64,000 bases of DNA from Nannocystales bacterium (GTDB lineage Bacteria > Myxococcota_A > Polyangia > Nannocystales > Nannocystaceae): contig JBOEGF010000008.1 of the NCBI GenBank assembly GCA_050633305.1, positions 320,001 through 384,000 on the forward strand, read 5' to 3'. Both the position numbers and the translations under genes were made by a program. Position 1 is the first letter of the stretch; every line of letters begins with the position of its first letter. This document shows positions 5,753-15,082 of the stretch, piece after piece. Below the pieces are notes generated by a model that was not told where the DNA came from, made no database searches, and saw only the letters and a program-made list of their open reading frames with translations.

Positions 5753-8008
5753 CTACAGAACGATGACAAACGCGTCCTTCTCCCGGAGCGCCGCGTGAGC
5801 CGAAGAGTCTCGCACCACCACGTGGATCGTCTGACTCCGCATCGAACCCGCTGCGAGACGCACCGCGATCGGGCTCATCACATGTTCTTCGATCACCCGC
5901 TTGAGCGGCCGAGCCCCACGGGTGGGATGCCAGCCGAGTTCCGCGAGTCGGGCACGAGCCTGTGGATCGACCGACAGCACCAACTCGCGCTCGCGTAGCC
6001 CCTGACGTTTCCCAGTCTTGCTCAGCTCGAGATCGACGACGCGCAGGATGTCATCACGGGAGAGCAGACCGAACGGGACAACGTTGTCGATGCGGTTGAA
6101 GAACTCCGGTCGGAAGTGAGCTCGCACGGCCCCAAAGAGAGCGTCGTGGGATGCGTCCGGCGCTCCAAACCCCGCGCTCGCGGTCTTCTGCACCCCCAGG
6201 TTGCTCGTCATGACCACCAACGTCATTCGGAAGTCGACCAGGCGGCCCTCGCTGTCGGTCATCCGCCCTTCCCCAAGCATCGCAAGCAGAAGGTCAAACA
6301 CCTCAGGGTGTGCTTTTTCAATCTCGTCGAGCAGCACCAACGACAGCGGCTGTGCGCGGACCTGTTCGACCAGGCTCTGCACGCCCTGGCCGACCGACAG
6401 CAACCGTTGGCCGGACCCCGGAAGCATGTACTCGCTCATGTCCAGCCGAACCATGCGCTCACTGTCCGAGAACATGACCCGGGCCAGTTGCTTGGCGAGT
6501 TCCGTCTTGCCGACACCCGTCGGGCCCACCAAGAAGAGACTGCCGATGGGGCGATCCGGGTCGCACAAGCCAGCCTTGAAGCGCGTCAGGACGCCGGCTG
6601 CCGTGTGGCAAGCGTCGTCCTGTCCAACGACGCCGTTGCGAAGGCGCGAGGCGATCTGCTCCCGCCCAGCGACCTCGCGGTCGGAGATCAATGCCAACGG
6701 GAGGCCGGTCGAACGTGCAAACGCCTCGGTGACCGCCTGTGCGCTCATTTCCTGGGGCTCGTCGCTGGGCTCGGTCTGCGCGAGCCAGTCGAGAAAGCGA
6801 AACCCTTTTCCCGGAAACCCACGATCTCGAGCAAAGAACTCGAGCAGCTGGACCATGGTGCGCAGCGCCTCGCTGGAGAAGGTGCGGTCCGCATCCAACC
6901 GGGCCTGATACTCCGCGAGCCGGTGCGGCATCACGGAACTCGTGGTCGGCTCGACCCTCACCACGAGAAACTGCGAGACGAAGGCAGGGTGTTGAGCGCT
7001 GAGCCGTTCGTACTCCTCGACGTTGCACTCCGCGATCACCACGAGTTCGCCAACGCGCATCGAGGCAGACAACATGTCGGCGATCGACGTGCTGGTCTGT
7101 GTGGCGCAGATCGGAGCCAACCGGTCCACATACAACACGTCGCGCGAAGCCGAGAGCTCCTCGATCAGGTCGAGGCAGCGCTGCTCCCACTCGCCGAGGT
7201 ACTTCATCCCTGCAACGATGCGGTCCGCGCTTGTGGACCACACGCGCGGAGCATCGGCACCGCGGCGCCCCAACGAACGAGCCAGCGAGCGAACCCACGT
7301 GGACTTTCCCGCACCCGGAGGGCCGACCAGCAAGACGGAGCGAGGATGCTCGCCCGCCATGAGCTCGACATAGCGCGGCTCGACAACGTCGCCGATCACC
7401 GGTCGTCTGCGACTCTTGCGCTGCTCGGCCGTCATGTCCTGCGCGACCGCGTCGAGAGTGTTCTGCGCCTCGAAACCGGAGGACCAGCTCGAAGGCCGAG
7501 CTCGGGTCGCATACGGCGGCGTCCACGACACGATGCGTTCGTCTTCGAGCCCGCGGAAGTCGAACATCGAACGAGCCTCCTCCCCAAGCATCGACTGGCC
7601 GATCGCCTGCCGGATGACCGTGGGTGCCATGTCGACGTCCTCGAGCACGAACCACCATCCGAACCGAGGAAGCATGACCAGGGCGCCACCGTCGGCGTTC
7701 TGGGTCCAGGCATAGCTGACCTGCAGCGGGATGGTCTGCTTGCCGATGACGGTGCGCTTCTTGACCACCCGCTGGGGGTTGACCTGCACCTTGACTCGGC
7801 GGACCTGCAGCGTCTCTTCCCACAGGAACCCCTCCAGCCGCTCGTCCGTCTCTTCGAGCGCGAGCGAGAGCTGAGAGAGGACAACCTCTTCGCTCGGGCC
7901 GTGCCCGGCGAGCGGTGAGGACAGCGTGCCACTGCGCGAGAGCAACCTGCCGGTATGGCTCCCGTCGTGGTGGGTGACGAAGTGAACCCGGTACGTAGGC
8001 CGAGCCAT
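5753..8008 (-). CDS. ClpA/ClpB-like double AAA+ ATPase, shortest of three paralogues (no C-terminal extension)
   Basis: GPPGAGKS; GPTGVGKT, RLDMSEY, LLDEIEKAH, MTSNLG, RPEFFNRID, GARPLKR. ATG 8008 overlaps the upstream TAA (TAATG). Confidence 0.9.
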   Translation of the reverse strand: MARPTYRVHFVTHHDGSHTGRLLSRSGTLSSPLAGHGPSEEVVLSQLSLALEETDERLEGFLWEETLQVRRVKVQVNPQRVVKKRTVIGKQTIPLQVSYAWTQNADGGALVMLPRFGWWFVLEDVDMAPTVIRQAIGQSMLGEEARSMFDFRGLEDERIVSWTPPYATRARPSSWSSGFEAQNTLDAVAQDMTAEQRKSRRRPVIGDVVEPRYVELMAGEHPRSVLLVGPPGAGKSTWVRSLARSLGRRGADAPRVWSTSADRIVAGMKYLGEWEQRCLDLIEELSASRDVLYVDRLAPICATQTSTSIADMLSASMRVGELVVIAECNVEEYERLSAQHPAFVSQFLVVRVEPTTSSVMPHRLAEYQARLDADRTFSSEALRTMVQLLEFFARDRGFPGKGFRFLDWLAQTEPSDEPQEMSAQAVTEAFARSTGLPLALISDREVAGREQIASRLRNGVVGQDDACHTAAGVLTRFKAGLCDPDRPIGSLFLVGPTGVGKTELAKQLARVMFSDSERMVRLDMSEYMLPGSGQRLLSVGQGVQSLVEQVRAQPLSLVLLDEIEKAHPEVFDLLLAMLGEGRMTDSEGRLVDFRMTLVVMTSNLGVQKTASAGFGAPDASHDALFGAVRAHFRPEFFNRIDNVVPFGLLSRDDILRVVDLELSKTGKRQGLRERELVLSVDPQARARLAELGWHPTRGARPLKRVIEEHVMSPIAVRLAAGSMRSQTIHVVVRDSSAHAALREKDAFVIVL

Positions 8009-14600: not shown

Positions 14601-15082
14601 TGGTGAAGCCCGTGCCGCGCGGCCGGCAACCGCGTGAGCATCTCGGTTGCGGAGAGACCCTGAACCTTCGCAGCTCTCTGTGCGGCCTCCGCAACAACAC
14701 GATGCAGGTCATCAGCCTGCTCCACGTAGACGAATGTCTCCAGCGGGAGAATCTGGACCCAGAAGGACCGGTCGTGCGGGATGATGACGCAGGCCATCGT
14801 GACTGGTTTCGTGACGGCGATCCGCCGAGGAAGATCCGAGCGAGACAACAACACCGGGACCTCCACCATCGTCGCGTCACTCGGCAGCGAAAACGTCGCC
14901 AAACTCGCCGCAGGGACCTTCTGGAGGTAGAGGGTGAGGAAACGCTCCTGTTGTTGGAGCGCCGCCTCCACCGAGGTCGTGCGGCTCGCCAACTTCGGGT
15001 CGACCAACGGGTAGGCGTACACGCCACCGCTCGTCATCTCCCTCACCACCATCGTCGCGTCGAGCTCGACTGCCGTCGCCAT
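11681..15082 (-). CDS. ClpA/ClpB-like double AAA+ ATPase with RF2/PCRF-like C-terminal region
   Basis: GRELAGKS; GPTGVGKT, RFDMSEY, LLDEIEKAH, RPEFVGRID, YGARALRR. C-terminus contains EVLIRVRGSLAEPLLGHETGLWHF. Confidence 0.9.
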   Translation of the reverse strand: MATAVELDATMVVREMTSGGVYAYPLVDPKLASRTTSVEAALQQQERFLTLYLQKVPAASLATFSLPSDATMVEVPVLLSRSDLPRRIAVTKPVTMACVIIPHDRSFWVQILPLETFVYVEQADDLHRVVAEAAQRAAKVQGLSATEMLTRLPAARHGLHQLKLSVSREDAADAGARAHSRRKRAKSRERGAGEKLLSEIGTPLRSLHRKERQPDVLERSDEIDALTGLLGGGERLSVLLIGRELAGKSALMHGLVSRAVHGSGPDPLGGRMVIATSGAQLVAGQSGFGELEQRVADVMKAAEELDAIVYFDNLGDLLSGRPGEIGDMVSGMLPYVTQDRVRVVGELTPEQVSHYEKMHVGFFAALSRVTVEPLDKDATRPVLEARAAHARAHEPHRPSLASAALPPLLDLCERYLAYEAFPGKAIRLHDELRAIHEAEVSEDGSPKSIGPTEVYRAFSARSGIPLFLLKEDRAVKLDEVERFFARRVIGQQEAVRKVAETVCMVKANLQPPGKPLANFLFIGPTGVGKTEVAKTLAQFLFGSGDRMVRFDMSEYMDPLAADRLIRGTLREEGELTRRVRQQPFCVILLDEIEKAHSAVFDLLLQVCGEGRLSDARGRTTWFNNAIIIMTSNLGAALRRPDAGFASTATNEPDAIASYYLEQVDKHFRPEFVGRIDRVIPFSALQRSEVSAVAEVAMRKVVERDGLLGRATELEVSQQALDGLAEAGYSAEYGARALRRHLESALVGPVCAAMATHAEVLDGALLAVSRPGDESPELPEGFTREALEESRDLSISVMRPLGTQRRQGVHQLGSVAALRRTADRCMYGPRVQTIRERLDYLIADLAGAKPSDTTAGAGQTAAELGLLQGVMGEATEHADAIADAEELAMAAVLEGAGADLFVTEALEAFARFERAFVRLLASFQGGDRICLFARSPGGRRTHEVLSIIDAAARARGWDVTLHRVGDPESEEGWPAKGRYGPPRTLGWWRERRETETEKARSRWSEVLIRVRGSLAEPLLGHETGLWHFQAESGDRVDVLELSTMSDTYDIPLTTLCPRKPFKGDVYVIPAARKTNELLRETPARGWTVQDGRWQVVHEEPRAQFSFSALTDYAAALERVQFAGRAADSLDQEEA

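Follow-up and report, generated by a model that had tools for sequence, protein, structure and literature searches.

A co-inherited trio of Clp-type ATPases with release-factor-like tails in Myxococcota: a candidate ribosome-directed machine

The window analyzed here, a stretch of 64,000 nucleotides (nt) at 65% G+C from a Nannocystales bacterium whose 11-Mb genome is assembled in 90 contigs, carries on its minus strand three consecutive genes, called A, B, and C below, for large ATPases of the Clp type. The trio is a self-contained, vertically co-inherited operon of three ancient ClpA/ClpC-type double-ring AAA+ paralogues, and the C-terminal tails of A and B descend from class I release factors (RFs) that lost their GGQ domain. 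Taken as a whole, the trio is read here as a ribosome-directed heteromeric Clp machine, with a probability of about 0.45, i.e., somewhat below even odds. The genes and the parts of their products to which the text refers are as follows, in positions of the window.

15082..11681, minus strand: gene A, 1133 amino acids (aa), with an N-domain, a degenerate first AAA+ module (D1), an active-looking second module (D2), and an RF-like tail (open reading frame, ORF, plus Pfam/NCBIfam matches)
14468..15082, minus strand: N-domain of A, aa 1-205, a paralogue of the B and C N-domains (hhalign)
12773..14467, minus strand: AAA+ core of A, its D1 and D2 motifs read in alignment
11684..12772, minus strand: RF-like C-terminal module of A, aa 771-1133, corresponding to RF domain 1 plus domain 2, without GGQ (profile comparison)
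11679..8008, minus strand: gene B, 1223 aa, with an N-domain, a degenerate D1, a lineage-specific insert, D2, and an RF-like tail (ORF plus Pfam/NCBIfam matches)
11065..11679, minus strand: N-domain of B, aa 1-205 (hhalign against the A N-domain)
10090..10314, minus strand: insert of ~75 aa in B at the site of the ClpB M-domain (alignment with the genome's own Clp paralogues)
10225..10302, minus strand: helix-turn-helix of B resembling part of the L7/L12 C-terminal domain, aa ~460-485 (Pfam PF00542, below cut-off)
8011..9159, minus strand: RF-like C-terminal module of B, aa 841-1223, corresponding to RF domains 1, 2, and 4 (AlphaFold2 model)
8008..5753, minus strand: gene C, 751 aa, with an N-domain, D1, and D2, and without a tail (ORF plus Pfam/NCBIfam matches)
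7439..8008, minus strand: N-domain of C, aa 1-190, with a weak HicB-N/UPF0150-like resemblance plus a beta-rich insert (modelled fold)

The coordinates, gene lengths, and junctions given in an earlier note on this DNA, which was made from the letters alone, all proved correct when the ORFs were checked: 1 nt lies between the stop codon of A and the ATG of B (11679), and the TAA of B and the ATG of C share nucleotides as TAATG. Scans for promoters and terminators gave counts not above those in shuffles.

Each protein indeed has two AAA+ modules. D2 of A, B, and C matched Pfam AAA_2 (E 1.5e-43 to 4.8e-42), followed by ClpB_D2-small above its cut-off, and a second, N-proximal P-loop module, D1, is present in all three. 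The NCBIfam ClpA and ClpB models span both modules, but the scores of 276-343 bits do not reach the cut-offs of 993-1232; over the ClpA, ClpB, ClpV, ClpG, and ClpK models together the best A, B, and C scores lay in the same range, and none of the cut-offs (885-1900) was reached. The genome's own Clp proteins do reach theirs: ClpB with 1234 bits versus 1232, ClpA with 1035 versus 993, and ClpV with 1087 versus 885. The earlier note had also described the trio as devoid of a canonical Clp N-domain and of an M-domain, and both absences were upheld. Clp_N was not found: within the N-terminal 200 residues of each protein, the number of Pfam families matching at E ≤ 10 was zero; alignment with the genome's own ClpB revealed no M-domain insertion in A or C, and what B has at that site is the different, ~75-aa insert listed above.

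Core motifs were read by aligning A, B, and C with the genome's own Clp paralogues and then across 11 orthologous systems (33 proteins). The Walker A motif of D1 is kept (GRELAGKS in A of the window), and the catalytic Glu of its Walker B motif is replaced, the corresponding residues in the window being DN in A (FDN), ED in B, and DR in C; in the orthologous systems, various D/E/N pairs occur at this place in A and B, and C has D followed by R, H, or A. The ClpB-type RRF Arg finger of D1 is lost throughout. D2 is intact in all three paralogues with respect to Walker A, Walker B, sensor 1, the Arg finger, and sensor 2 (GAR). Judged by these motifs, D1 is degenerate and D2 is predicted to be an active ATPase. 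The pore loops are unusual in both tiers. The pore-loop Tyr of D1 is found in C of all 11 systems and in B of nine of them, and A has Gly instead; the D2 loop is 5-6 residues shorter and without GYVG in all three paralogues, only B having an aromatic residue there (F/W/Y, 9/11). The aromatics are therefore complementary: B has them in both tiers, C has them in D1 alone, and A has none. A mixed ring is favored because a ring of A alone would have no pore aromatic at all and a ring of C alone would have none in the motor tier.

A hydrophobic-Gly-Phe/Leu/Ile loop, AGF in A of the window, is in register in 31 of the 33 proteins and offset by two residues in the other two. It aligns with VGF of the genome's own ClpA, and the genome's ClpB and ClpV have a gap at this place, where the IGL/IGF/VGF loop that docks on ClpP is located. 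ClpP is encoded twice in the genome, and substrate may be handed over to it through this loop, the binding being predicted from the motif. The genome also encodes a fourth, atypical Clp-like ORF (G000:C4:123000-125675; L016:1000-3675, minus strand), which scores 337 bits versus the ClpB cut-off of 1232, reads FDD in its D1 Walker B motif, and has kept the GYVG loop.

The tails are the most distinctive parts of A and B. A profile of the 11 orthologous A tails (A_C) matched Escherichia coli RF2 (1gqe) in an hmmsearch of the PDB at E 9.2e-6, and did so collinearly: profile positions 64-193 correspond to RF2 residues 31-163, and positions 222-264 to residues 165-207. Compared by hhalign with an alignment of ten RF1 and RF2 sequences from five of the orthologue-bearing genomes, A_C gave a probability of 94.3% and an E value of 9.6e-8 over 176 columns. 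The match takes in RF domain 1 and, of domain 2, the part that precedes the recognition loop; the final ~90 aa of A have no assignment. For B, the evidence comes from an AlphaFold2 model of the tail (B_C; 28 sequences, pLDDT 83.9, pTM 0.80). Its top 49 Foldseek matches were all RF1, RF2, or mtRF1 (best E 1.2e-6), and VIA-align gave Z scores of 12-14 to RF1 and RF2 (~40 RF entries, root-mean-square deviation ~3 Å, 140-150 residues), with the first unrelated fold at Z 5.5. Residues 163-381 of the model correspond to RF domains 2 and 4 with domain 3 skipped, a single helix (292-311) standing at the site where RFs have the ~100-residue insertion of the GGQ domain; the free, closed RF crystal forms 1gqe, 1zbt, and 1rq0 align with it over 212-246 residues, domain 1 included.

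The two tails align with each other in the same register by hhalign (54.7%, E 1.2e-4), a relation seen with profiles only, as BLASTP of the A tail against the B tail was not significant. Each is conserved inside its own orthologue group, and the ExGxH motif is conserved in the tails. GGQ was found at the homologous site in none of the 22 tails and nowhere in A, B, or C of the window. Given these profile and model matches and the absence of GGQ, the earlier description of the C-termini as RF-like without GGQ is right for both A and B, and we conclude that both derive from class I RFs by excision of the GGQ domain, as judged from the profile for A and from the predicted structure for B. B of locus L002 has one chance GGQ, which lies in the helical region and not at the homologous site. 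Pfam signals on the isolated N-domains and tails, such as PspA at E 0.27, were rejected as noise.

The N-terminal ~200 aa of the three proteins lie outside Pfam, and a profile of the C N-domain (C_N) found nothing in an hmmsearch of the PDB. In hhalign comparisons, the A profile (A_N) aligned with C_N at 78.7% (E 1.7e-5) and with the B profile (B_N) at 77.4% (E 1.9e-5); B_N against C_N reached 0.4% and gave no direct support, and BLASTP among the N-domains was not significant. On these comparisons A, B, and C share one new N-terminal domain. Among 1.84 billion representatives the A_N profile matched 238 proteins at E ≤ 1e-3, 192 of them at E ≤ 1e-10; because the matches among those listed are mostly proteins of ~1080-1220 aa with the domain at the N-terminus, the shorter ones looking like fragments, the domain seems confined to the trio family. 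The family is thus larger than word-indexed searches had shown (14 A, 18 B, and 59 C proteins). One A-type protein of 1741 aa (P0120) is ~600 aa longer than the others and is a possible fusion or read-through.

A model of C_N (69 sequences, pLDDT 81.0, pTM 0.73) had no Foldseek match in the PDB at E ≤ 1e-3, and the ESM Atlas offered no usable match to this domain. The top five hits of a wide VIA-align search were all HicB-antitoxin N-domains or UPF0150 proteins, at Z scores of only 5.4-5.9 with 64-78 aa aligned; we regard this weak resemblance of the model as a lead and not as an assignment. When the three N-domains were submitted together to complex prediction, the score was 0.52, and the best of three controls scored 0.01. 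The mark used for such predictions is reached by 116 of 157 solved complexes and by two of 215 mismatched pairs; at scores of 0.60 or below, it is reached by only 18 of the 157 solved complexes and by both of the passing mismatches. At least 38% of the contacts agreed between runs, and the partner pLDDT was at least 70. The prediction lends weak support to an association of the A, B, and C N-domains.

The earlier note had in addition seen an insert in B resembling the C-terminal domain of L7/L12. The resemblance of a helix pair stands, and the assignment to the domain as such does not: Pfam Ribosomal_L12 (PF00542) matched the helix-turn-helix of B at E 5.5e-4 and 20.6 bits versus a cut-off of 25.9, and the match covers profile positions 11-36 of 67, i.e., one helix-turn-helix of 26 residues rather than the whole domain. 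Nearly all close homologues of B (17 of 18) have the motif, and PF00542 is a precomputed annotation of one homologue. Across the 11 systems, however, the ~75-aa insert is found in B of only three, which form one family (the window, L001, and L002), and the other eight are without it. At locus L003, where B has no insert, a similar motif is located at the C-terminus of A (~5640-5740). The L7/L12-like piece is a lineage-specific accretion that was gained at two positions, and since it is both short and lineage-specific, it cannot be the core of the mechanism.

The three genes are conserved as a set. Homologues from public sources were labelled Nannocystaceae or Myxococcota. A six-frame search of 401 genomes of the phylum with the A tail found it in 13, all of at least 6.5 Mb; these genomes range from 6.5 to 11.1 Mb and the listed genomes without the tail from 1.8 to 6.3 Mb, the genomes being related to one another. 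The trio seems tied to the large-genome lineages of the phylum. Twelve A-tail loci were taken, of which one (L012) is a short contig fragment and was left out. In 10 of the 11 usable loci, A, B, and C occur in the same order and orientation, and their N-domains and tails each match their own orthologue. Gene sizes are steady (A, 1082-1161 aa; B, 1103-1239 aa; C, 747-765 aa), and overlaps of 4 nt were counted at the A-B junction in 8, and at the B-C junction in all, of the 10 orthologous loci.

A separate scan of 185,579 species genomes, made with one peptide pattern from a five-sequence subset of C_N, found at least 20 loci, which is a lower bound; all are in Myxococcota, including Minicystis rosea DSM 24000 and Byssovorax cruenta, and three are the same places as L008, L010, and L011. 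The full trio was present in 14 of the 15 loci with a complete upstream flank. Three others were truncated, with B and C running up to the contig end, and two were uninformative fragments. The three paralogues on which the earlier note had built its case are therefore co-conserved as an ordered, translationally coupled array, in 10/11 and 14/15 loci of the two neighborhood surveys. No other gene family occurred in more than four of the 11 neighborhoods, and the trio array stands alone, without another conserved neighbor. Kinase and histidine-kinase families were considered as further parts of the system and rejected, as they are abundant and each occurs at four loci at varying distances. A 1927-aa protein from a Polyangiales metagenome-assembled genome (P0058) was likewise not used as a natural B-C fusion: its last ~50 B residues are of low complexity and frameshift-like, and it may be an assembly or gene-calling artefact. 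At L002, a gene for a Y2-type transposase (697-2187, minus strand) lies 20 nt upstream of the trio.

For the D2 module, a maximum-likelihood tree was built from the 33 A, B, and C proteins, the ClpA, ClpB, and ClpV of the genome, and the fourth atypical Clp. A, B, and C each form one group (100/99), and all 33 are set apart from ClpA, ClpB, ClpV, and the atypical Clp by a 100/96 branch. Sub-groupings within each paralogue run in parallel, and two sequences (can15 and can16) are long branches. The grouping and the parallel sub-groupings lead us to conclude that the triplication is old and that the three genes have travelled together.

How might such a trio work? We suggest that the products of A, B, and C would co-assemble into one mixed ring, a hetero-oligomer already inferred in the earlier note and suggested by the gene overlaps, the constant order, the complementary pore loops, the parallel trees, and the weak N-domain prediction. 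The stalk base and the 30S decoding center are the places where RF1 and RF2 contact the ribosome with domain 1 and the domain 2/4 superdomain. The two dead-RF arms of the ring would dock it in or near the ribosomal A site and decoding center as RF2 domain 2/4 does, but independently of a stop codon, and the D2 motor would then remodel the bound complex, either by splitting the ribosome or by drawing a bound protein or the nascent chain out of it. The hydrophobic-Gly-Phe loops may pass substrate on to ClpP. The role would be an accessory one in stress, quality control, or conflict in large-genome Myxococcota, and the machine would, in outline, be a bacterial counterpart of Pelota-ABCE1 or Vms1-Cdc48. 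The most elaborate version, a hetero-hexameric, ClpP-coupled ring whose dead-RF arms plug vacant A sites on ribosomes that have stalled or collided while D2 splits them or extracts and degrades what is bound, seems to us rather unlikely in all its particulars.

Several observations weigh against this reading. Docking on the ribosome is something that we infer from RF ancestry alone, and the ancestry itself is not visible to every method. The B_C sequence profile had no significant RF similarity, and its PDB hmmsearch gave nothing meaningful; neither Pfam PCRF (PF03462) nor RF-1 (PF00472) matched either tail at E ≤ 10; and a six-frame PCRF search of five genomes returned RF1 and RF2 genes plus short fragments only, missing the tails. 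Behind ExGxH, the tails have a recognition loop with 5-7 fewer residues than that of RF2 and without the SPF/PxT tripeptide anticodon, SPF being absent at that place from all 22 tails; with this loop shortened and domain 3 gone together with its switch region, the fit to the A site may be lost. A ring would moreover carry several RF arms, whereas a ribosome has one A site. The missing GYVG of the D2 pore loops and the lack of any pore aromatic in A speak against classical threading into ClpP; threading is accordingly doubtful, and splitting or prying apart is equally possible. The complex prediction is weak and concerns N-domains, not rings. Finally, A stands alone within 13 kb at locus L009 (G201), as does C within 8 kb at L031, the exception in the second survey. 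Their partners may be elsewhere or lost, but because of these solo genes, co-assembly is not obligatory everywhere.

The same tails could serve off the ribosome as protein-protein modules, i.e., as substrate or adaptor receptors, auto-inhibitory lids, or oligomerization arms, with an ArfA-like peptide, RF3, or a methyltransferase as example partners; the trio would then be a stress chaperone or ClpP protease with non-ribosomal clients. The loss of the codon-reading loop and of the whole catalytic domain would suit such a role, as would the resemblance of the B_C model to the closed, off-ribosome RF forms named above, and the great distance of A_C and B_C from RFs and from each other, combined with their conservation per orthologue group, is what new partners would produce. 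What the tails have retained, however, is domain 1 and the 2/4 superdomain, which are exactly the established ribosome-contacting parts of RF1 and RF2, and the independent addition of an L7/L12-like motif on two occasions (the B insert and the L003 A tail) points to the translation apparatus. We consider an off-ribosome function rather unlikely. It is quite improbable that the trio is a conflict system for anti-phage defense or abortive infection, in which an invader is sensed and the GGQ-less arms block A sites or decoy phage factors. The sporadic distribution (13/401 genomes of the phylum), the variable neighborhoods, and the Y2 transposase beside one copy could be so explained, and D2 resembles DolB and PDC-M37B, Clp-like ATPases of candidate defense systems. 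Yet the PADLOC matches (DolB, PDC-M37B, mad8, and others) are confined to the generic D2 ATPase module, and they were rejected as an identity for the trio on that ground; no nuclease, protease, TIR, or other effector or known defense gene is linked in the neighborhoods; and the parallel sub-groupings of the paralogues are more suggestive of joint vertical descent than of frequent transfer.

Three independent homo-hexameric Clp paralogues, merely co-transcribed and each with its own clients, would be compatible with the other readings and agree with the established homohexameric state of ClpA, ClpB, and ClpC and with the solo A and C genes of some genomes. We nevertheless find this very doubtful in view of the order and 4-nt overlaps conserved across families, the pore aromatics that rings of A alone (in both tiers) or C alone (in D2) would lack, and, as weak support, the predicted N-domain association.

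The ribosome-directed mixed ring can be compared with several known systems. Like ClpA and ClpC, the trio has two AAA+ modules with an AAA_2-type D2 followed by ClpB_D2-small; A and C resemble ClpA in having no M-domain, and the hydrophobic-Gly-Phe/Leu loop occupies the ClpP-docking loop site of the genome's own ClpA. Unlike ClpA and ClpC, the trio has no Clp_N, its D1 is without the catalytic Glu and Arg finger, its D2 is without GYVG, and it comprises three linked paralogues rather than one gene, with a new N-domain and RF-derived tails. Pex1/Pex6 may offer an analogy in that paralogous subunits share one ring in which D1 is the inactive tier and D2 the active one, although it belongs to another AAA+ clade, is eukaryotic, and has two paralogues and no RF modules. 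With RF1 and RF2, the tails have in common the helical domain 1, the fold of the domain 2/4 superdomain, and the ExGxH(R) motif; they differ in that domain 3 with GGQ is reduced to one helix, the anticodon loop is shortened, and the tail is fused to an ATPase of 770-840 aa.

PrfH (RF-H) is an RF paralogue that acts on damaged ribosomes together with RtcB. It is similar to the trio tails as a diverged RF paralogue with a reduced domain set, and the B_C model aligns with it at Z 7.4-7.7 (7sa4 and 9mor). The reduction took opposite courses, however: in the portions of an RF-evolution survey consulted here (PMC6514570), PrfH is without domain 1 and keeps the RF peptidyl-hydrolase domain, whereas the trio tails keep domain 1 and have no hydrolase domain. 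The same portions describe Dom34 as catalytically inactive and Vms1 as linked to CDC48 (PMC6514570). Dom34/Pelota sets a precedent for an inactive RF-family protein leading an ATPase to stalled ribosomes, and Vms1-Cdc48 sets another. Pelota/Dom34-ABCE1 and Vms1-Cdc48, each of which joins an RF-family module to a ribosome-splitting or chain-extracting ATPase, may serve as a working analogy only; their RF modules have the unrelated aeRF1 fold and are separate proteins, while in the trio a bacterial-type RF is fused to a Clp protein.

Literature searches found no description of a Clp-RF fusion or of the trio, although paper supplements, which lay outside the search, may list such architectures. 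In the portions consulted, the RF-evolution survey, which follows the hydrolase domain, mentions no Clp fusion and no AAA+ protein besides CDC48 (PMC6514570), and the term "release factor" is absent from a survey of conflict systems (PMC7159879). What is new is the domain set, without precedent for a Clp/Hsp100 ATPase, and the organization as three paralogues; the trio could prove to be a ribosome-directed machine of a new kind.

In the accepted picture, bacteria rescue ribosomes and control translation quality through the successive action of tmRNA, ArfA/ArfB, RqcH, and ClpXP, and we know of no bacterial AAA+ unfoldase that reaches the ribosome through a domain of its own. If our reading is true, a built-in RF mimic would recruit the trio to the ribosome, a first among bacterial AAA+ machines and a convergence on Pelota-ABCE1 and Vms1-Cdc48; joining an unfoldase to a GGQ-less RF would be a new logic, in which an ATP-driven motor is tethered to the A site. 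With their dead D1 tier and unequal pore loops, the three paralogues would also form an obligate heteromeric Clp ring, which is rare in bacteria. Because M. rosea DSM 24000, a cultured strain whose genome is complete, carries the trio, the hypothesis can be tested directly.

Of the genes around the trio in the window, one encoding an SDR protein lies 194 nt downstream and is not conserved at orthologous loci. Divergently upstream are three tandem genes for Ser/Thr protein kinases of ~955-967 aa with C-terminal TPR arrays (16525-25163, plus strand); a fourth kinase gene (2-874, minus strand) is truncated by the start of the window. A VKOR-DsbA fusion gene is located ~10 kb from the trio (25673-27184, plus strand), and one lies directly downstream of the trio at L001, a locus of the same family (11621-12847); this proximity may reflect residual synteny rather than a functional link. 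When words of the DNA were looked up in sequencing runs, no RNA run was among those listed, and a fraction of 0.41 was found in one DNA run, from a microbial-mat metagenome.

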